Of a stretch of DNA of 64,000 nucleotides, positions 7,152 to 63,926 are shown one piece after another (position 1 is the first letter of the stretch; each line of letters starts with the position of its first letter). The position numbers and the translations under genes were made by a program. The stretch lies in assembly GCA_963695555.1 (NCBI GenBank), contig CAVOGR010000005.1, forward strand, positions 224,001 to 288,000, in the 5' to 3' direction. The notes beneath the pieces were generated by a model that worked only from the letters and a program-made list of their open reading frames with translations, did no database searches and was not told the origin of the DNA. Source of the stretch: an uncultured Gemmatimonadales bacterium (GTDB lineage Bacteria; Gemmatimonadota; Gemmatimonadetes; Gemmatimonadales; GWC2-71-9).

Positions 7152-7200
7152 ACTCCTTACTCCTTACTGTACTGTCCCCACTCCTTACTCCCTACTCCCT
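7152..7200. repeat. Heptamer tandem repeats ACTCC(T/C)T
   Basis: Five copies (7152-7165 and 7180-7200) interrupted by ACTGT x2. Confidence 0.7.
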
Positions 7201-8154
7201 CTTCCCTTCATTGTAGTCCCGCAGGAACTGCCTGAGTTCGCTCAGGCTTCCAAAGGGAGTGATGCCGAGCCGCTCGAAGTCTCGTGCGACTGGGGCCGCT
7301 CCGCTCCCACCGACGACAATCGTAGCACGTCCGCCGAGTTCCTTCTTCAAGGCCGCCGCATCCTCGAGGAGGCGGCGCGACTCGATCGGAAAGACTGAGC
7401 TCAGGGCGAGGACGTCGGCTTCCAATGACTTGGCCGCGCGCGCGATGTCGAGCGGCGGGAGATCCGCTCCGAGATAGGTCACCTGCCACCCCTCGGCGGC
7501 CGCCGTCCCCGCGGCCAGCATCGCGCCGAACTCATGCCGGTCGCCCGACATGGTGGCGACCACAAACCGTCGGGCGCTCCGCGAAGGCCGGTAGGCTTCC
7601 CGCGTCCAGGTGAGTACCTGGTGGATGACAGCGGAGGCGGCATGCTCATGAGCCGGCGTGAGGGTACCGGCATGCCAGCTCTCGCCGATGTAGCGGAGCA
7701 GCGGCGTCACGACTTCCTCGATCAGCCCGGTGGCGCCCAGGGTCATGGCCGCCTGCCGCAGCGTCAGGTGCAGGCGGGCGGTGTCGAGCTTCTCGATGGC
7801 CTCTTCAGCCCGGTCGACGAAGCCCGCCGCCGCGCGACCATTCTGCCCTGCGTTGAGTGAGGGCGCGACTGCCTGGCGGGCCCGGTCATCGGCCTCAATC
7901 AGGTCCCGCAATTCGTCGTTGGACGCTCCGGCCACCCGGCTGATCGAGCGACCGCCCAGGCTGGCGCGGTGCAACAAGTCCAACCGTTCGATGTCGGCGT
8001 CCGAGTAGAGCCGCTGCCCGCCATCACTGCGGCCGGGCTCCACCACCGCGTACCGCCGTTCCCAGACCCGGAGCAGGTCAGGACTCAGGCCGGTCCGAAG
8101 GGCGACGACCCGTATTGGGTGACGTGGCTCGGAGAAATCATGATCATTTGACAT
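7192..8154 (-). CDS. MerR-family cobalamin-binding regulator, CarH/LitR-like photoreceptor
   Basis: MerR HTH (LRVWERRY..GGQRLYS), W-x9-EH motif (WHAGTLTPAHEH), B12 motif DRHEFG, YLGADLP. Confidence 0.88.
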   Translation of the reverse strand: MSNDHDFSEPRHPIRVVALRTGLSPDLLRVWERRYAVVEPGRSDGGQRLYSDADIERLDLLHRASLGGRSISRVAGASNDELRDLIEADDRARQAVAPSLNAGQNGRAAAGFVDRAEEAIEKLDTARLHLTLRQAAMTLGATGLIEEVVTPLLRYIGESWHAGTLTPAHEHAASAVIHQVLTWTREAYRPSRSARRFVVATMSGDRHEFGAMLAAGTAAAEGWQVTYLGADLPPLDIARAAKSLEADVLALSSVFPIESRRLLEDAAALKKELGGRATIVVGGSGAAPVARDFERLGITPFGSLSELRQFLRDYNEGKRE

Positions 8155-8160
8155 GAAATC

Positions 8161-8239
8161 AATCTAGGAGGCCGTCCAATCCTTGTCAATATTTGAACTT
8201 GGTCAGATACTTGACAAACCGTGTCCAAATAGCTACTTT
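8161..8239. promoter_or_regulatory. Divergent sigma70 promoters with CarH-type TnnACA motifs
   Basis: Minus strand TTGACA(8189-8184)-17-TAGATT(8166-8161); plus strand TTGACA(8211-8216)-17-TACTTT(8234-8239). Confidence 0.7.
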
Positions 8240-8359
8240 TCCTGGGCATGGGTTGGACAGTGGTCTTGGGCAATCCTGGACCTCGAGGGCGAGGAGGTCG
8301 GTACTGCTGGTGGGATAGGAAAAGTCATCTACTCGAACACTCTCAGAAGGAGCAACACA

Positions 8360-8857
8360 ATGCGGTCAAAGATTCTCGCTGGGTTGGCGGTTGCCTCGTT
8401 GGCGATTGCGGGCAGCGCTCAGGCTCAGCAGAAGTACTCCGAGGCCAAGCAGGCGGACATCGTGGATGTCGCCATTGCGGCCGGTTCCTTTAACACGCTG
8501 GCCACGGCGCTCGAGGCGGCCGGGTTGGTGGAGACGCTCAAGGGCAGTGGTCCGTTCACCGTCTTTGCGCCGACCGATGAGGCCTTCGCCAAGATTCCAA
8601 AGGAAACCTTGAATGCGTTGCTGGCCGACAAAGAGAAGCTCACGGCCGTTCTGACTTACCATGTCGTCCCCGGTAAGGTCATGGCCAAGCAGGTCATGGG
8701 GCTCAAGAACGCCACGACGGTCAACGGCCAGGACGTCACCTTCATGATCCATGACGGGAAGGTGATGGTGGACAACGCAACGGTAGTGAAGGCCGATATC
8801 GAGGCGTCGAATGGCGTGATCCACGTCATCGACTCCGTGATCCTGCCGAAGAACTAG
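8360..8857 (+). CDS. Secreted fasciclin (FAS1) domain protein
   Basis: AAGGAG RBS, signal peptide, [19 protein letters not shown] and [18 protein letters not shown]1 motifs. Confidence 0.93.
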
Positions 8858-11365: not shown

Positions 11366-14039
11366 TCATAGCGATTCGAAGCGTCCCTGGAAGAAACGCA
11401 ACTTGGCCGGCTCATAGACGAACCGCAGTCCCGTGATTTGCTGGCGCCGCTCATACAGTCGGATGACGCCCTCCGCCACGGCCTGCATGTGATCGTTACT
11501 GTAGACCCGGCGTGGGATGGTGAGGCGCACCAACTCCAAGGCCGGACGGTAGTTTTCCCCGGTCTCCGGATTTCGTCCTTTCGACACGTTGCCGCGTTCC
11601 ATCGCGCGGACACCGGTCTCGACGAAGATTTCCGCTGCGAGCCGCTGGGCGGGATACTCGTCCTGGTCGAGGTGGGAGAGGAATCGTTTGGCATCGAGGA
11701 AGATGGCGTGGCTCCCAGGCGGGACGACGATGGGGACGCCCGCATCTAGCAGCAGTTGCCCGAGATATGCGGTCTGCCGCACTCGCGAGCTGATGTACCG
11801 GTCATCGACCATCTCCTCGACCCCGCGCGCGATGGCCGCGAGATCGGCCGTGGCGAGTCCGCCGTCCGTGATGTTGCCCTCATAGACCCGGAGCAGGTCC
11901 TGGGCCTTTCGTGCCCATTCCGCGTTCTCGCGGAAGGCGAGGATGCCGCCGATGTTGATCAAGAAGTCTTTCTTCCCGCTCACCGTGCAGCCGTCCCCGT
12001 AGAGCATCATCTCCCGGAGAATGTCCGCCACTTTGACGTGATGGTACTTCGGGTCCCGGGATTGGATCATGTAGGCGTTCTCGGCAAACCGGGTGGCATC
12101 GAAGAAGATCGGGATGCCCGCGGCGCTGCAATACTCGTACACCTCCTTCATGTTCTGCATGCTCACCGGCTGGCCGCCCGCCATGTTGACCGAGTGTTCG
12201 AACGAGATGTAGGCAACGTTTGAGGCGCCGTGACGCTCGACCACGGCCTCGAGCTTCTCCAGGTCGATGTTCCCCTTCCACGGGTAGTCGAGTTCCGGCC
12301 GATGGGCCTCATCCACGATCACGTCGACGAACACGCCACCCGCGAACTCCTGGTGCAGCTTGGTGGTGGTGAAGTACATGTTGCCGGGCACCAGTTGCCC
12401 GGGCGTGATCATGATCTGGCTCAGGATGTGCTCCGCGGCCCGACCCTGATGGGTCGGGATGATGTGTTCGTAGCCGATCACGTCGCGCAGCACTTTGACG
12501 AGTCGGAGGTACTCGTCACTGGAAGTTGCGCTGGCGCGCGCGCCGTCGTATGCAGCCCATTGCGCATGGCTCATGGCCGAGGTGCCGGAATCGGTCAGCA
12601 GGTCGATGGCGACGTCCGCCGAGCGCAGCAGGAAGGTGTTGTAGCCGGCGGCGCGGATGGCCCGCTCGCGTTCGCCGCGGGTCAGTACACCCACCCGTTC
12701 CACCGTATGGATCTCGATAGGGGAAGACGTCGAAGGCAAAGGTCTCCAGCTCGGGGAAGATCCACCGGTATTCCATCTGATCGCGCCAGCTTCCCTCAAC
12801 CGTGGCCTGGAGCCCGCTCACCGCCTCACGCTGGCGATAGAGGCTGATGATAGCGTTTCCGACCTCATCGAGTTGTTCGTTGGTCATGGCCAGGCGCGGG
12901 ATCTGCACCGGCACGAGCCGGTCTCGTCCTACCAGCCCCTGCGCGAGGGCACGCACACCCGATATCAGAAACAGCGCAGCGGAGAGGGTATCCTGCGCAT
13001 GCCGGCCGACGTGCGGGAGGAACTCGTCGGCCTTGAGGTAGGCGCCGTCGCACCCGCGTTCGATCGGCACGCCCGCGTCGCGGAGTCGCTCGGTGAATCG
13101 CTCGGTTTGATGCATGACCCAGTGGACCTCGTCCTCATCACACATTTCCCGGAGACCCCGAGCCAGCACCTCCATCGTGCGCCCGGCCATGCCGCCGTAC
13201 GTGTGGAGGCCTTCGAAGACCACGACTTCGTTCACGAACTTCTCATGATCATCCGGATTGTCGGTGGTCAGGAGGCCACCGGTGTTGCACTTGGGGTCCT
13301 GGGCTCCATCGACCATCAGGATGTGGGTGGTCTTGACGATGTGGCGTACGATGTCGGCGATGGCACGATCGGCCTGGCCTGGTTCGTGGCGTTGGATGTA
13401 CCAGGCGTTTTCGATGATCCGGGAGCCGTCGCAGACCAGCCGCTTGCCGTACCGGTCGGCGAGGGCACGGAGGGCACGGAGATTCGTCAGGCTGAAGGGG
13501 TGTTGGCCATCGGCAAAGGTTTGGAGCCCGACGATGGCGACTCCAGCCTGTTGGAGGATCTTTTCGAGCTTGCCGAGGTCCACGTTGCCCGTGAAGACCC
13601 GCTCCGCGAGGTCGCGTACGTGGGGATAGGCCACCCCCAGCGGTTGGAGGACGTCCATGCCGGTGCGAGCGTTACTGGGGATCACGGAATCGGGGGGCAC
13701 CATCGTCGTGAGGACCAATTTCAGACAGCCCAGCATATTGTGGGTGGGGCAGACATAGCCATGCCCGAGGACCGCGGTAACCGCTTGTTCCAGCGATCCG
13801 AAATTCCGCGACCCCGCATAGGCTTCGTCGCCAATCAGCTGGCCGGCTAGTTGCTCCTGGCTCATGGCGCCGGTGCCCCGGGCACACATGTCGAAGGTGA
13901 CCTGGGTCGGTGTCAGGTTGAAGACATTGAAATGCGCTGCCGCCAGGTGCTGCTTCCGCTCCTCGAGCGAAGGGAATGAGAGGAGCCTGACGGTTTTGAT
14001 CTTGTGCGGCTCGTGCGGCACCATGGATCCTCCGGACAT
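11366..14039 (-). CDS. Tandem double-domain tyrosine phenol-lyase/tryptophanase-family protein (~890 aa; +1 frameshift at ~12716)
   Basis: ATG 14039 with a GGAG RBS. N-half (EPHKIKTV, GDEAYAGS, EGLHTYGG) joins the C-half (LLTDSGT, PTHQGRAAE, NMYFTTT, FDATR, SGKKD, AMERG, LRFFQGRF) if the single extra base in TTC CCC TAT c GAG ATC CAT is removed. Confidence 0.85.
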
Positions 14040-14279: not shown

Positions 14280-14362
14280 GCCCGAGTGGCGGAATGGCAG
14301 ACGCAGTGGACTCAAAATCCACCGGGGGCAACCCCGTGCGAGTTCGACTCTCGCCTCGGGCA
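14280..14362 (+). tRNA. tRNA-Leu (CAA)
   Basis: Acceptor stem GCCCGAG/CTCGGGC, D-loop TGGCGGAATGGCAGAC, anticodon arm GTGGA-CTCAAAA-TCCAC, long variable arm, GTTCGAC T-loop; CCA not encoded. Confidence 0.96.
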
Positions 14363-14442
14363 CTGGCAATATTTCCGGCGCCTTCTCTGGGCCAGTGATT
14401 ACGGTCTGCGCTCCCGTCCCGAATCTTGAGGCCGGCTCCCCC

Positions 14443-15941: not shown

Positions 15942-16218
15942 CAGCCCCGCGCATCCCTCGCCAAGGAAGGGGGTCTTCGACGGAGCGCGCGATCTTGGTC
16001 GCCGCCCCGACTTCCGAACAATCTCTGGCGCCAGCGGCAATATTGTTGATATTGGTGTCTGGAGCGTGGTCTCGATGGCGAGACCGACGCGCCGCCGACC
16101 TCGGTGGGTACCCGCTCACGAGGTCGTTTCGTAGTGATTTCACGGGTTCTTCATTCACGGCTGACCAGCTTGACTCGCTGGGTGGCAGCGTCGGATCCTC
16201 TGGAAAGGAGTGAGTACT

Positions 16219-16857
16219 ATGCTACGACGTTCCTTGTCGGTTGTGTTCGCGGTCTTGTTCGCGGTGAGCCTGGCCGTGCCTCAGGCCTCGGCCCAGGGCA
16301 TCAAGGGTGGGGTCAAAGGTGGGGTGAACCTCGCCAAGTTGGGCGGAAGTGATGCCGGGAGCCTCGAGACCAAGGCCGGCCTTGTCGCCGGCGGGTTTGT
16401 GGAGTTCATGATCGGCAACATGTTCGCGATCCAGCCGGAAGTGCTCTACTCCCAGAAGGGCGCCAAGGAGAGCGTCGGTGGCGACGAGCTCAAGTTGAAG
16501 ATCGATTACGTCGAGGTGCCGGTGCTGCTCAAGATCAACATCCCGATCGAGGGCAGCAACGTTCATCCGAATGTCTATGCCGGCCCGGCCGTGGCCTTCA
16601 AGGCAAGCTGTAAGTTCTCCGGGAGTTCCGGCGGCGTTTCTTTCAGCGAGAGCTGTGATGACGCGGGTGTAATGGTCAAGAGCACCGATTTTGGCGTGGC
16701 GTTCGGTGGGGGGGTCAGTTTCGATGTCGGTGGGGCCGAGGTCGGCGTGGACGTGCGCTACACGCTCGGACTCACAAAGATCGACGATGAGCCCGATCCT
16801 GACAATGTCAAGAACAAGGTTATCTCGATCATGGGCACGGTGGGGTTCAGTCGCTGA
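16219..16857 (+). CDS. Outer-membrane beta-barrel protein (PorT/OmpA-like 8-stranded), paralog 1
   Basis: AAGGAG RBS, signal peptide ..ASAQ, GVKGGVN, IQPEVLYSQKG, YVEVPVLLK and DVRYTLGL motifs. Confidence 0.85.
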   Translation: MLRRSLSVVFAVLFAVSLAVPQASAQGIKGGVKGGVNLAKLGGSDAGSLETKAGLVAGGFVEFMIGNMFAIQPEVLYSQKGAKESVGGDELKLKIDYVEVPVLLKINIPIEGSNVHPNVYAGPAVAFKASCKFSGSSGGVSFSESCDDAGVMVKSTDFGVAFGGGVSFDVGGAEVGVDVRYTLGLTKIDDEPDPDNVKNKVISIMGTVGFSR

Positions 16858-16881
16858 GCTGATACCCTGTCTAGGAAGGGA

Positions 16882-16917
16882 AGCGCGGGCCGGCAGTTGC
16901 CGGCCCGCGCTGCTTTT
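16882..16917 (+). terminator. Intrinsic terminator
   Basis: 14-bp inverted repeat AGCGCGGGCCGGCA/TGCCGGCCCGCGCT followed by GCTTTT. Confidence 0.8.
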
Positions 16918-17048
16918 CAAAGAACATGTCGAGGGCGTGGTTTCTCCGTGTGCCATTTCGCACAATCTTCATCACCGCTTCACCCTCGATGCATGAGTTT
17001 TAGGCGCTGGAGTGGGGTTACCGGACCAAACGAGAAAGGAGTGGCGCC

Positions 17049-17711
17049 ATGCTACGACGTTCCTTGTGGGCCGTCCTCGGGGTCTTGTTCGCGGCGAGCC
17101 TGGCCGTGCCTCAGGCCTCGGCCCAGGGCATCAAGCTCGGGGTCAAGGGCGGGGTGAACATCGCCAACATCGGAGGGAGTGACATCGATGAGTTCGAGAC
17201 CGACCTCGGTGCCTCCACCGACAGCAAGGTCGGCCTTGTCGCCGGCGTATTCGCCGAGTTCATGATCGGGAACATGTTCGCGATTCAGCCGGAGGTGCTC
17301 TACTCGCAGAAGGGCTTCAAGGCGAGTGAAATGGGCGCCGAGGTCAAGTTGAAAGGCGATTATGTGGAAATCCCGGTGCTGCTCAAGATCAACATCCCGA
17401 TTGAGGGTAGCAAGGTGCATCCCCATGTCTATGCTGGCCCGGCCGTGGCCTTCAAGGCCAGCTGCAAGATCGAGGGGAGCTCCGGCAGCGCGTCAGCCAG
17501 CGTGGATTGTGAAGATGCGGGTCTCCTGATCAAGAGCACCGACTTCGGTGTGGCGTTCGGCGGAGGGGTCAGTGTCGATGTCGGCGGGGCCGAGGTCGGC
17601 GTCGATGTGCGTTACACGTTAGGGCTCACGTCCGTCGATGACGAGCCTGACCCGTACAGCATCAAGAACAAGGTCATTTCGATCATGGGGACAGTGGGTT
17701 TTTCCCGCTAG
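17049..17711 (+). CDS. Outer-membrane beta-barrel protein, paralog 2
   Basis: Near-identical signal peptide, RBS and barrel motifs to 16219-16857. Confidence 0.85.
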   Translation: MLRRSLWAVLGVLFAASLAVPQASAQGIKLGVKGGVNIANIGGSDIDEFETDLGASTDSKVGLVAGVFAEFMIGNMFAIQPEVLYSQKGFKASEMGAEVKLKGDYVEIPVLLKINIPIEGSKVHPHVYAGPAVAFKASCKIEGSSGSASASVDCEDAGLLIKSTDFGVAFGGGVSVDVGGAEVGVDVRYTLGLTSVDDEPDPYSIKNKVISIMGTVGFSR

Positions 17712-40460: not shown

Positions 40461-40706
40461 ATGCAGGTCGAAGTCCTGGTCTTTGGCCAGCTCGTCGAGT
40501 TGCTGGGCGCGAGTAGCCTGTCGGTCCGGCTGCCGCGGCCGGCAACAGCGCGAGACGTGTTTCACGCCGTGCTCGCCACGCTGCCGAACCCCGCTCCTTC
40601 CATCCCTCCGCTCGCCTTCGCCGTCAATCGCGTCCATGCCACCCCCGAGGCAGCGGTGGAGGACGGCGATGAGGTGGCCCTCCTGCCTCCTCTGGCGGGG
40701 GGATAG
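40461..40706 (+). CDS. moaD: Molybdopterin synthase sulfur carrier
   Basis: FAVN..DGDEVALLPPLAGG, C-terminal GG. Confidence 0.9.
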   Translation: MQVEVLVFGQLVELLGASSLSVRLPRPATARDVFHAVLATLPNPAPSIPPLAFAVNRVHATPEAAVEDGDEVALLPPLAGG

Positions 40707-40707
40707 C

Positions 40708-41163
40708 GTGCCGCACCTTACCACGGAGCGGCTTCGGCTCGATCGACTGGTCGCCGAGGTCCTGTCCCCGGAGCGGGGTGGAGTTGCGACCTTCATCGGA
40801 GTGGTGCGCAACCACCATGATGGCCGCTCGGTCGTGCGGCTCGAGTATTCCGCGTATGACGCGATGGCAGAGGCGGAGTGCCAACGGATCGTGGCTGAGG
40901 CTACCGAGCGCTGGCCGGTCCGGGTGGCGGTCGAGCATCGTCTGGGCACGCTCGAAGTCGGCGATGCGGCGGTAATGGTGGCTGCGGCCGCGGCGCATCG
41001 GGCACAGGCATTCGAAGCATGCCGCTACGTGATCGAGGAGCTGAAGCGCCGCGTGCCGGTGTGGAAGCGGGAACATTTCGCCGACGGAAGCATGGTGTGG
41101 GTCGAGCCGGCCGGGGCCGGTGCAGCCGGCGGAAACGTCCCGCCGGACGGGGCGGCACGATGA
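40708..41163 (+). CDS. moaE: Molybdopterin synthase catalytic subunit
   Basis: FIGVVRNH, LEYSAY, HRLG, HR..AF and LKRRVPVWKRE motifs. Confidence 0.93.
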   Translation: MPHLTTERLRLDRLVAEVLSPERGGVATFIGVVRNHHDGRSVVRLEYSAYDAMAEAECQRIVAEATERWPVRVAVEHRLGTLEVGDAAVMVAAAAAHRAQAFEACRYVIEELKRRVPVWKREHFADGSMVWVEPAGAGAAGGNVPPDGAAR

Positions 41164-61074: not shown

Positions 61075-61628
61075 TGGCCGAGATCGTCTTCTATTTCTTC
61101 GCGGCCGCTGCCATCCTGTCCGCGCTCATGTGCATTACGCAGCGGAACCCGGTGGCCTCCGCGTTCTGGTTGATCTCGACGATGCTGACCCTCGCGGGCA
61201 TCTTCGTGTTGCTCGAAGCGCAGTTCATCGCGGCCGTCCAGGTCTTGGTCTACGCCGGCGCCATCATGGTGCTGTTCCTCTTCGTGATCATGCTGCTGAA
61301 CCTGAGCGACCGGGTAAGCGACATCCGGGGCAAGTTGAGCTGGGTCGTGGCGGCGCTCATTGCCGGCGCACTGGCCGCGTCACTCCTCACGCTCCGGGGG
61401 TATACCCCGGCGCGGCTGGCGCTCGAGGTGACCGGCTCGGCACAGATTCCGCCCGAGGTCGCGTTCCAGGCCGCGGAGTTGGCTCGGGCGGAGGCGGCAT
61501 CGCGGGGGATCATCGGCGTCTTCGCCGAGCCGCTGTTCGGATCGTACCTCATCCCCTTCGAGATCACGGGGTTGCTCTTGCTCACGGCGATCGTCGGCGC
61601 GGTCGTGCTGGCAAAGCGGAGGCTCTAA
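61074..61628 (+). CDS. nuoJ: NADH-quinone oxidoreductase subunit J
   Basis: [19 protein letters not shown] and PFEITGLLL motifs. Confidence 0.95.
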
Positions 61629-61629
61629 G

Positions 61630-61926
61630 ATGCTGCTTGGCCCTTCGCTCGGCCTGTCCGCCATCCTGTTCGCGATCGGCGTGGCCGGTGTCATTCTCCG
61701 GCGCAACGCGATCGTGCTGTTCATGTGCATCGAGCTGATGCTCAATGCCGTGAATCTGAGTTTCATCGCACTGGCACGCTACCACGGCGTCAGCGGGCAG
61801 ATCATGGTCTTCTTCGTCATGACGGTTGCGGCGGCTGAGGCGGCGGTGGGGCTCGCGATCATCCTGGCCCTGTTCCGACATCGCGAGAGCGTCGATCTCA
61901 AGGACGCCAACGTGCTGCAAGGATAA
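61630..61926 (+). CDS. nuoK: NADH-quinone oxidoreductase subunit K
   Basis: RRNAI..IELMLNA and [11 protein letters not shown] motifs. Confidence 0.96.
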
Positions 61927-61931
61927 CCGGC

Positions 61932-63926
61932 ATGGCCGAACTCGTATCGGACGGATCGATGATCGGATGGGTCTGGGCCACCGTGGCCCTGGCCCTGGTC
62001 GGGTTCCTGGTGAACGGCGCCTTGGCGATTTGGAGGCCGACGGCCAAGCGAGCCGTGTCGATCGTGGGTCCGGGGGTGGTGCTCGCGGCCTTTCTGGTTG
62101 CGGCGGCGGCGTTCCTGGAGCTGTGGGGCGCCACCCCCGAACGGCCCTACATCCTGACCCTCTGGTCCTGGCTGCCGGTCGATACGCTCCACGTCGATCT
62201 CGCCTTCCAGGTCGACCAGCTCTCGGCCGTGATGATGCTCATCATCACGGGCGTCGGCGGCCTCATCCACGTGTTCAGCATCGGCTACATGCGAGACGAC
62301 CCGGGATACGCCCGCTACTTCGCGTATCTCAATCTCTTCATCGCCTTCATGCTGGTCCTGGTGCTGGGCGCCAATTTCCCGGTGCTCTTCATCGGGTGGG
62401 AAGGCGTCGGGCTCTGTTCGTATCTCTTGATCGGGTTCTGGTTCGAAGACCGGCTCAAGGCGGACGCGGGGAAAAAGGCCTTCATCGTCAACCGGATCGG
62501 CGACTTCGGGTTCCTGATCGCCATGTTCCTGATCTGGACGTCGGTGGGCTCGCTCGACTTTGTGGAGGTCTTCCGTGCCGCCCCCGGAGCGCTGCCGCTC
62601 GGCGGGGCGATGATCACCGCCATCACCCTGTTTCTTTTCCTCGGCTGCGTGGGCAAGTCGGCCCAGATCCCGCTCTACGTGTGGCTGCCCGACGCCATGG
62701 CAGGTCCGACGCCGGTGTCCGCCCTGATCCATGCCGCAACCATGGTGACCGCCGGGGTCTACCTCGTGGCACGCACCGGTGTCCTCTTCGCTATGGCGCC
62801 CGTCTCGAGCCTGGTGGTGGCGGGGGTCGGCGCGGTGACGGCGCTCTTTGCCGCTACCATCGGGCTCCGGCAATACGACATCAAGAAGGTCCTGGCGTAT
62901 TCCACCGTGTCGCAGCTCGGGTACATGTTCGTGGGCGTCGGCACGGGTGCGTTCGCCGCGGGCATTTTCCACCTGGCCACGCATGCGTTTTTCAAGGCGT
63001 TGTTGTTCCTGGGAGCTGGCAGCGTGATCCACGCGATGCATCACGCCTACCACGCCACCCATTCCGACGCGGACGCGCAAGACATGCGGAACATGGGCGG
63101 CCTCCGCGCCCACATGCCGTGGACCTTTGCGCTCATGGGCATCGCCACCCTGGCCATCGCCGGGATTCCGCCTTTTTCGGGCTTCTTCTCCAAGGATGAG
63201 ATTCTCGCCGCGGCGTTTGCTCGTGGCGGTGAGAACCCGGTCTACTACATCTACTGGGCGCTGGGATTGGCAGCTGCGGCCATCACCGCGTTCTACATGG
63301 CGCGATTGATGGCCATGACCTTCCTGGGAGCGAACCGGACCGGAGAAACAGAGCGCCGCCACCTGCACGAGGCCCCGTGGACCATGACCGGGCCGCTGGT
63401 GGTGCTCGGCATTCTGAGCTTGGCCGGCGGTATCATCAACCTCCCGGCCTTCGTGGGCGGCCACCACGCGCTCGAGACCTGGCTCGAGCCGCTGACTGCG
63501 GCGGCGCATTCGTTCGCGCCGCTGCACCTGCCGCACGGGACGACTGAGGCTGTGCTCATCGGCGCAGCGGTGCTGGTGGCCGTGGTGGGCCTCGTCTGGG
63601 GTGCCAGGGCCACGCTGGGAACGGCCATCGTGCCCGCCGGGCAGGCGGTCGAGGAGCGAGGGTTCTGGAAGGTGGTGTTCAACAAGTATTACGTCGACGA
63701 GTTGTACGACCGGGTCATCATCCGCCCGTTGATGTGGCTGTCTGAGACGGCCCTCTGGCGCGGCATCGATCAAGGGCTGATCGATGGAGTGGGAGTCAAC
63801 GGGACCGCCAAGGTGTCTCGTGCGCTTGGCTGGATCGGCAGCGCGCTCCAGACCGGGCAAGTGGGCTTCTACCTCGTGCTCTTCCTTCTTGGCGCGATCT
63901 GGATCATGCGCGCGGTGGTTGGGTAG
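61932..63926 (+). CDS. nuoL: NADH-quinone oxidoreductase subunit L
   Basis: GWEGVG, NRIGD, GKSAQIPL.VWLPDAMAGPTPVSALIHAATMV and HAFFKALLFL motifs. Confidence 0.97.
   Translation: MAELVSDGSMIGWVWATVALALVGFLVNGALAIWRPTAKRAVSIVGPGVVLAAFLVAAAAFLELWGATPERPYILTLWSWLPVDTLHVDLAFQVDQLSAVMMLIITGVGGLIHVFSIGYMRDDPGYARYFAYLNLFIAFMLVLVLGANFPVLFIGWEGVGLCSYLLIGFWFEDRLKADAGKKAFIVNRIGDFGFLIAMFLIWTSVGSLDFVEVFRAAPGALPLGGAMITAITLFLFLGCVGKSAQIPLYVWLPDAMAGPTPVSALIHAATMVTAGVYLVARTGVLFAMAPVSSLVVAGVGAVTALFAATIGLRQYDIKKVLAYSTVSQLGYMFVGVGTGAFAAGIFHLATHAFFKALLFLGAGSVIHAMHHAYHATHSDADAQDMRNMGGLRAHMPWTFALMGIATLAIAGIPPFSGFFSKDEILAAAFARGGENPVYYIYWALGLAAAAITAFYMARLMAMTFLGANRTGETERRHLHEAPWTMTGPLVVLGILSLAGGIINLPAFVGGHHALETWLEPLTAAAHSFAPLHLPHGTTEAVLIGAAVLVAVVGLVWGARATLGTAIVPAGQAVEERGFWKVVFNKYYVDELYDRVIIRPLMWLSETALWRGIDQGLIDGVGVNGTAKVSRALGWIGSALQTGQVGFYLVLFLLGAIWIMRAVVG

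Follow-up and report, generated by a model that had tools for sequence, protein, structure and literature searches.

The window analysed here is a 64,000-nucleotide stretch of contig CAVOGR010000005.1 from an uncultured Gemmatimonadales bacterium, and its minus strand carries a gene in which two domains of the tyrosine phenol-lyase (TPL)/tryptophanase family lie in tandem, in two reading frames that switch at position 12716. A preliminary description had proposed two TPL-like domains that join head to tail once a single base is dropped, giving a product of about 890 residues. The fusion and the switch of frame stood, and every motif named there was found in its place, while the length was corrected to 885 residues, that of the closest homologue, a named Gemmatimonadales protein (P0001). 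The count starts at the ATG at 14024, the likely start because GGAGG precedes it and P0001 begins at the same methionine. The features of the gene are as follows, with TPL residue numbers counted on the alignment to structure 1c7g (PLP, pyridoxal 5′-phosphate).

11366..14024, minus strand: fused two-domain TPL-like gene, 885 codons plus stop with the extra base discounted
14029..14033, minus strand: GGAGG, presumed from its likeness to be a ribosome-binding site, 4 nt ahead of the ATG at 14024
12717..14024, minus strand: N-terminal pseudo-enzyme domain, which would lend residues and is without a working site of its own (PF01212 and NF009709 matches)
13818..13832, minus strand: GDEAY loop of the N-domain, with the equivalents of Glu69 and the catalytic Tyr71 (Tyr codon 13820-13818, Tyr69 of the 885-residue protein)
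13296..13310, minus strand: DGAQD, the dead PLP motif of the N-domain, with Gln where Lys257 would be
13191..13214, minus strand: EGLHTYGG loop of the N-domain, with the Tyr291 equivalent (Tyr codon 13199-13197)
12701..12770, minus strand: head-to-tail junction, running into the N-terminal arm of the C-domain, with no added linker by length count
12716, minus strand: extra base at the domain junction, which shifts the frame; missing from 4/4 sequencing runs and from genome G023
11366..12715, minus strand: C-terminal catalytic domain of TPL type (TIGR02618, 620.2 bits; superposition on 1c7g)
12581..12601, minus strand: LLTDSGT of the C-domain (Thr49, Asp50, Ser51 and Gly52 equivalents, in 180-181 of 181 C-domains)
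12527..12544, minus strand: GARASA of the C-domain, the lost GDEAY loop (Tyr71 in 3/181 C-domains)
12440..12451, minus strand: HQGR, phosphate-binding motif of the C-domain (Gln98, Gly99 and Arg100 in 181/181)
12362..12382, minus strand: NMYFTTT of the C-domain (Phe123 and Thr124), TPL-type (Thr124 in 178/181)
11966..11980, minus strand: SGKKD of the C-domain, with the PLP lysine equivalent to Lys257 (codon 11971-11969; 181/181)
11858..11881, minus strand: EGNITDGG of the C-domain, where Tyr291 is lost (Tyr in 0/181 C-domains)
11591..11602, minus strand: MERG of the C-domain, with Arg381 (177/181)
11390..11401, minus strand: LRFF of the C-domain (Phe448 and Phe449), TPL-type (176/181 and 175/181)

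The N half scored 93.6 bits and the C half 241.6 bits with PF01212 (cut-off 27), and 286.1 and 553 with NF009709 (cut-off 285); the best PDB matches of both halves were TPLs (E 1e-61 for the N half and 8e-161 for the C half). Modelled alone, the C-domain superposed on TPL 1c7g with a template modelling (TM) score of 0.93, a root-mean-square deviation (rmsd) of 2.5 Å and 54% identity, and the N-domain was assigned to the TPL/tryptophanase fold by sequence match. Compared with P0001, 10 of 436 residues differ in the N half and 8 of 449 in the C half. Between the two domains of one chain, the median identity among the two-domain proteins is only about 28%.

Reciprocal loss of active-site residues

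In TPL, Lys257 is the PLP lysine, Tyr71 the general acid and Arg381 the base, Thr124 holds the phenol, and Phe448/449 contact the substrate (PMC10170061). Tryptophanase receives Tyr72, the equivalent of the catalytic tyrosine, from the partner chain and binds indole through Asp133 and His458 (PMC11301627), and its Tyr74 and Tyr307 reach across to the neighbouring subunit, whose PLP phosphate they bind (PMC2770544). The latter, Tyr307, is presumably the tyrosine of the YGG motif.

A search for long relatives of the fused protein returned 782 matches among 7,999 candidates, of which the 120 listed are 866-925 residues long and 68-98% identical to the N half. Eleven more distant two-domain proteins (847-928 residues) came from a search of 50%-representatives, and 50 of the 80 genome loci fetched hold an intact two-domain frame, the others being single-domain, cut by contig ends or broken. 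These make up a redundant set of 181 proteins (120 + 11 + 50), which was thinned to 20 representatives of the main family with less than 60% N-domain identity, leaving aside the small side group described below. The two-domain homologues of about 900 residues with conserved reciprocal loss to which the preliminary description had looked ahead thus exist, as these 181 proteins.

N-domains keep Tyr71 and Glu69 in 180 of the 181 (one truncated sequence accounts for the sole miss) and Tyr291 in all, and position 257 is Gln in 167 and Lys in 5; the five with Lys are the four proteins of the side group and P0250, and in two of them the motif is otherwise unrecognisable. The C-domains have Lys257, Gln98-Gly99-Arg100, Phe123, Asp214, Arg217, Ser254 and Arg404 without exception (181/181), together with Thr124 (178), Arg381 (177, the four misses being the side group), Phe448 (176) and Phe449 (175), whereas Tyr71 occurs in only 3 and Tyr291 in none. 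Among the thinned representatives, the lent motifs of the N-domain are invariant (GDE-Y in 19 of the 19 covered, EGL-TYGG in 20 of 20) while the positions of its own site vary, and the C-domains are the mirror image. The pattern holds in 181 two-domain proteins and 20 representatives and is therefore not chance; with the lent residues unchanging and the N-domain's own site variable, it is, on this sequence comparison, a mark of purifying selection on the lent parts. Random decay of the N-domain, named beforehand as the outcome that would speak against a split site, did not occur. The course first suggested, in which duplication, fusion and reciprocal degeneration left one site per chain, is accordingly supported by residue patterns and conservation that are observed directly, although the N-domain proved less bare than described: it has lost the PLP lysine as claimed, but it retains Asp214 and, in the window's subfamily, Arg217, one of the arginines that it was said to lack.

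Summed over both domains, the complete TPL catalytic set is present once, and neither domain alone has it in full. On these alignments and the models below, it is very likely that the active site is split, with halves contributed by different domains. The monovalent-cation site of TPL, which we take to be formed by Gly52, Asn262 and the lent Glu69, would likewise be kept once, with Gly52 in 181/181 and Asn262 in 180/181 C-domains and Glu69 in 180/181 N-domains; our literature search found no paper giving the residues of this site. The TPL Lys11 position in the N-terminal arm is kept in all 19 covered N-domains and variable in C-domains, and the Trp61 position is kept in 20 of 20 C-domains and variable in N-domains, an asymmetry that may report on tetramer contacts.

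The side group consists of P0246, P0247, P0249 and P0252, two-domain proteins of 864-909 residues. An SGKK-type motif and HQGR survive in the N-domain of three, the C-domain of two still has Tyr71, and Arg381 and Tyr291 are missing from every C-domain of the group. Because these C-domains branch apart from the main family in a 100-domain tree, the fusion here may have arisen independently or have decayed less, and may act on another substrate. Separately, the single-domain proteins P0336, P0365, P0294 and P0319 are without Tyr71 and Tyr291; they may serve as partners in heteromers that are not fused, or have a different activity. At four loci (L070, L071, L077 and L079) a TPL-type gene and a tryptophanase-type gene lie side by side, unfused and each with a complete site, so the family does occur in tandem arrangements.

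By record title, the carriers of the fusion belong to Gemmatimonadota, Acidobacteria, Myxococcales, Planctomycetota, Eisenbacteria, Bacteroidales and Gammaproteobacteria, and further to Chloroflexota, Stahlbacteria, Elusimicrobiales and Desulfobacterales; as far as these titles show, all are metagenome-assembled. Occurrence is patchy, with the fusion in 8 of 301 sampled genomes of the window's phylum (the unpublished genome G057 enters only this denominator). Database labels of the two-domain proteins often read 'tryptophanase'. The near search also returned N-type proteins of 243-772 residues, mostly from short contigs or labelled partial, which neither show nor exclude a stand-alone, split N-type form. 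The ESM Atlas gave single-domain TPL and tryptophanase clusters only, a result that says nothing on novelty or absence.

Pairing of the domains and the dead site

TPL is a tetramer of two catalytic dimers that are interlocked by their N-terminal arms (PMC10170061), and the non-catalytic interface of tryptophanase is built from the arms, at strands 12-17 and 58-60 (PMC2770544). When the N-domain (residues 1-424) and the C-domain (430-885) of P0001 were modelled as separate chains with PLP, the pair reached an interface score (ipSAE) of 0.91, against 0.00 for the best of three controls; of 157 solved complexes 116 attain the mark applied, as do 2 of 215 mismatched pairs, though these counts apply only roughly here. 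Runs shared at least 96% of contacts, and the mean predicted local distance difference test (pLDDT) score of the partner was 93. The modelled interface is the catalytic one, formed by residues 66-73, 268-273 and 278-283 on the N-domain side and 464-482, 525-529, 553, 690-691, 837 and 874-878 on the C-domain side. Of the loops with the lent tyrosines, the one at 66-73 lies in the interface; Tyr276, the Tyr291 equivalent, is not listed there, although the segments flanking it are. The models suggest that N and C form a catalytic pair, with the reserve that, because solved TPL dimers exist, the pass may reflect likeness to these.

From the Pro408 equivalent of the N-domain to the Ile10 equivalent of the C-domain, the junction measures 62 residues in 161 of the 181 proteins (range 54-74). 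This length is directly observed and equals the tail plus the head of the single-domain P0230 (49 + 13), with no added linker. An AlphaFold2 model of the fused P0001 chain had a mean pLDDT of 83 and a predicted TM score (pTM) of 0.78, and in it the junction and the C-domain arm are packed confidently, in blocks at pLDDT 93 (421-430) and 82. Residues 444-473, a C-domain segment that includes its first helix, are displaced at pLDDT 36-48, the live-site loops 65-71, 273-279, 811-820 and 874-878 fall to the same range, and N-domain residues 62-65 occupy the place of TPL residues 9-12. In the C-domain modelled alone with the same homologues, the segment reaches pLDDT values of 87, 83, 71 and 56, and the arm loses the order that it has only in the fused model; the rmsd of the C-domain to TPL is 2.5 Å alone and 6.3 Å in the fused model, a comparison between the window's C half and the 98% identical P0001. 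In our reading, the fused model forced the catalytic pair within one chain, whereas the covalent link holds the C-domain arm on the N-domain arm, as in the non-catalytic interface. Both the N-C interface and the strain that appears when it is forced within one chain are properties of models. Since no linker was added and strain falls on the segment after the junction, pairing between chains is favoured, and a two-chain assembly satisfies both the arm contact and the catalytic pairing; it is fairly likely, on these models, that the live sites are built between two chains, with each N-domain completing the C-domain of the other.

We propose, then, that duplication, head-to-tail fusion and reciprocal loss produced a catabolic TPL that, from its residues, would convert L-tyrosine to phenol, pyruvate and ammonia. 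The C-domain would bind PLP on Lys685 and hold the substrate through the equivalents of Thr124, Arg381, Arg404, Phe448 and Phe449, and the N-domain would lend the general acid Tyr69 (Tyr71), Tyr276 (Tyr291) and Glu67 (Glu69), the reciprocal site being dead and closed. Two chains would most likely assemble into a pseudo-tetramer, two of its four sites being live and two dead, in which the joined domains touch via their N-terminal arms and each N-domain completes the C-domain site of the other chain. For the proposal as a whole, a split-site TPL with live sites between two chains, we put the chances at about even.

The same split site could also arise if the N- and C-domains of one chain pair catalytically and such chains then dimerise, as in the single-chain pseudo-heterodimer of the preliminary description. 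The single-chain model, with its pTM of 0.78, seems to set the domains in this way, the separate domains pair well, and some 14 junction residues, if stretched, could bridge tens of angstroms. We nevertheless consider this arrangement unlikely: residues 444-473 lose both confidence (pLDDT 36-48) and their TPL position, yet fold when the C-domain is alone, and the short junction keeps its length across the family and packs confidently against the N-domain (421-430 at pLDDT 93). The interface list of the separate chains includes neither chain end, although an unlisted residue is only uncertain. Of the earlier picture the split site thus stood, while pairing within the chain was weakened by the linkerless junction and the strained segment. 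The preliminary description had further supposed that the dead site was freed for a regulatory or ligand-binding role. Eight residues near it (Asn96, Asp172, Ser201, Arg202, Lys245, Trp413, Arg414 and Asp415) are invariant in the 117 proteins of the window's subfamily, and non-covalent PLP binding has been predicted for the dead N-terminal site of the glycine decarboxylase GLDC (PMC7259800), but in the 20 distant representatives the N-domain positions of Ser51, Gly99, Arg100, Thr124, Arg217 and Arg381 vary, and only the Ser at 216 is invariant. Because of this variation a family-wide regulatory site is unlikely, and that supposition found no family-wide support. At the phosphate-binding place, Asp stands for Ser254 and bulky residues for Gly99, and N-domain residues 358-363, 413 and 415 sit plug-like where the two domains meet in the N-C model. 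Of the two readings a structural plug is the simpler, and a retained regulatory or ligand-binding pocket has a slim chance. Equally slim is a bolder combination, in which the domain-swapped pseudo-tetramer, its chains lending each other the catalytic tyrosine, has had its subfamily dead site (Asn96, Asp172, Arg202, Lys245 and Trp413-Arg414-Asp415) rebuilt as an allosteric sensor and the side group stems from a separate second fusion, at an earlier stage of the same decay and with another substrate.

Substrate and the extra base

The C-domain signatures FTTT, MERG and LRFF are of TPL type, and the earlier assignment to TPL rather than tryptophanase held, with FTTT and LRFF confirmed where tryptophanase has FDTT and LRHF. 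The pair formed by Asp133 (in FDTT) and His458 (in LRHF) is not present in the C-domain, which scores 406.5 with the tryptophanase model TIGR02617 (cut-off 825.8). In a tree of 100 selected domains (LG+G4, midpoint root, long branches, support by the Shimodaira-Hasegawa-like approximate likelihood-ratio test only), the 22 main-family C-domains form one branch (96) grouped with 11 TPL-type single genes (87) and apart from the tryptophanase type, and 26 N-domains fall on one side of a branch (98), with a branching that largely mirrors that of the C-domains. A tryptophanase gene of FDTT type stands apart from the fusion in all eight fusion-bearing genomes of the phylum sample, and the seven other than the window's have only three family matches each, the N-domain, the C-domain and the tryptophanase, in a small and related sample; this fits a fusion that fills the TPL role beside tryptophanase. 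L-tyrosine is probably the substrate, judging from these signatures.

A split site that prefers a modified tyrosine, DOPA or an S-substituted cysteine would agree with a C half below the TPL equivalog cut-off, with the replacement of Met288 by Leu in 177 of 181 N-domains, with the acceptance of DOPA, Ser, Cys and S-methyl-Cys by TPLs (PMC10170061), and with the side group, which is without Arg381 and without one or both of Phe448/449. It is nonetheless quite unlikely, since the TPL specificity residues are all kept in the 20 main-family representatives, apart from Phe448/449 and Met379 in one, and Leu288 is common to many single-domain genes named TPL, such as P0230. The other alternative concerns the gene rather than the family. 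Four of the 21 listed sequencing runs, none shown to be of the window's strain, were compared across the junction, and in each the one contig that spans 12716 is without that base; in run X2 the other pieces match the window with 0 differences across 178-258 bases. The same-genus genome G023 has an open frame of 986 codons in which base 12716 is the only length difference inside the gene, all 120 top long homologues cross the junction point in one frame, and substitutions in the run comparison cluster at 12707-12761, resembling a local patch of consensus errors. Being missing from all four runs and from G023, the base is very probably an assembly error. That the gene is instead a recent, real pseudogene in this strain, with the family functional elsewhere, could be argued from the uncertain strain of the runs and from the genome's tryptophanase gene on contig C7, which likewise has one extra base relative to G023. 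We hold this to be very unlikely, given the runs (X2 included), the bunched substitutions, an absence of stop codons, catalytic residues that are all intact, and the comparison of 42 long G023 frames with the window's genome (G000), in which 4 are shifted: the fused gene, its antisense shadow and two others, where the shift may lie on either side.

A programmed frameshift was ruled out as a separate candidate because the top 120 long homologues and G023 read continuously. The tryptophanase gene on C7 is an ordinary one (FDTT, LRHF), located at L001:5302-6889 (G000:C7, about 61300-62670) and split by its extra base. Contigs of the RNA library X1 span all 30 bins; contigs cannot show transcription.

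Several points weigh against the split-site TPL that we propose. The gene is frameshifted in this assembly. With TIGR02618, the TPL equivalog model (cut-off 720.7), the halves scanned score 620.2 (C) and 252.3 (N), both below the mark, and a Pfam survey of 79 flanking open reading frames at 50 loci gave no conserved neighbourhood pointing to tyrosine. The pass of the N-C model may stem from likeness to solved TPL and tryptophanase dimers, the strain was judged between sequences that differ slightly, and TPL residues 21-51 are a mobile hinge (PMC11512013) that may lower confidence there in any model.

Gene surroundings, significance and known systems

The neighbours of the fused gene in the window, a lytic transglycosylase, a tRNA-Leu and MgtC, are common only to the same-genus G023 among five genomes tested. 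The tRNA-Leu(CAA) lies at 14280-14363 (+), on the strand opposite to the gene and 256 bases upstream of it, and is followed by the MgtC-family gene; no integrase or GC shift was seen beside it. A promoter and terminator scan gave nothing above chance, and the GC profile showed no island around the fused gene. At 3 of the 50 loci (L030, L052 and L059) a class I/II aminotransferase precedes the fusion and a gene of the ornithine cyclodeaminase/mu-crystallin family follows it, a possible amino-acid catabolic cluster. In L039 the fusion is immediately preceded, on its own strand, by a stand-alone tryptophanase-type gene (L039:4575-5975), and L019, L031 and L054 share a small protein divergent upstream on the opposite strand, which from its sequence we take to be an Lrp/AsnC regulator look-alike. 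Elsewhere in the window, ARAGORN called a 93-base tRNA-Gly with anticodon ACC at 40686-40778 (+), unusual in bacteria and possibly a sequence error or miscall; a MerR/B12-binding regulator, presumably CarH-like, is divergent from a fasciclin-domain gene at 7195-8854; and two tandem paralogous outer-membrane beta-barrel genes (PF13568) occupy 16210-17711 (+).

In TPL and tryptophanase, two textbook homo-oligomers, neighbouring subunits build the active sites together, and this family amounts to a natural dissection of own-subunit and lent residues that matches crystallography residue by residue. Because two of the four sites are dead here, the role of four coupled sites in catalysis becomes testable. 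The family also illustrates, in recent and graded form, the path along which glycine decarboxylase is believed to have evolved, and for biocatalysis, where TPL makes L-DOPA, it would allow the lent loops and the PLP domain to be changed independently. It was likely missed because the carriers seen here are uncultured, its labels read plain 'tryptophanase' or 'TPL', and at least one survey of tryptophanases was limited to lengths of 400-600 residues, a range in which the fusion would not be retained (PMC12980246). Provided that tyrosine is indeed the substrate, the fusion may add an overlooked route from tyrosine to phenol in sediments and soils.

With TPL (EC 4.1.99.2; Erwinia herbicola 1c7g, Citrobacter freundii 2ez1 and 2tpl; TIGR02618) the fusion shares the C-domain fold, the summed residue set and a site shared by two units. 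Known TPLs are homotetramers of subunits of about 456 residues with four PLP (PMC10170061), whereas the fusion is, as read from its sequence, one 885-residue chain of two unlike domains with half a site each and one site per chain. It would work like TPL, yet it lies below the equivalog cut-off and departs from identical subunits with full sites; because neither domain has the full residue set, we regard it as a variant rather than a canonical member. Tryptophanase (EC 4.1.99.1; Proteus vulgaris 1ax4, E. coli 2c44) has the same fold and family and a partner chain that lends the tyrosine (PMC11301627, PMC2770544). It differs in having FDTT and LRHF where the fusion has FTTT and LRFF.

In serine palmitoyltransferase, LCB1 is without the PLP lysine and one shared site results. 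LCB1 and LCB2 are fused in most EhV coccolithovirus genomes and separate in two (PMC5371807). That enzyme belongs to another family, catalyses another reaction and is eukaryotic and viral. The halves of glycine decarboxylase (GcvP/GLDC) pair within one chain, whereas those of the fusion are proposed to pair between chains. Glycine decarboxylase is a fold-type-I enzyme of two related halves, in one chain or as alpha and beta, with the PLP lysine in the C-terminal half, Gln instead in the N-terminal half, and a predicted dimer (PMC7259800). The fusion has this GcvP-type architecture, two homologous halves with the PLP lysine only in the C-terminal one, which is a likeness of architecture and not of family membership: glycine decarboxylase is of another family and reaction, stems from an ancient duplication, and is an unusual member of its fold (PMC7259800). 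A literature search that left most subscription papers and supplements outside it found no description of a fused two-domain TPL/tryptophanase, and PMC7461572 brought nothing further here. The earlier statement that no such enzyme was known in this family agrees with this, and the fusion is apparently an undescribed, conserved TPL variant with a split site; in the superfamily the architecture has a precedent in glycine decarboxylase (PMC7259800).

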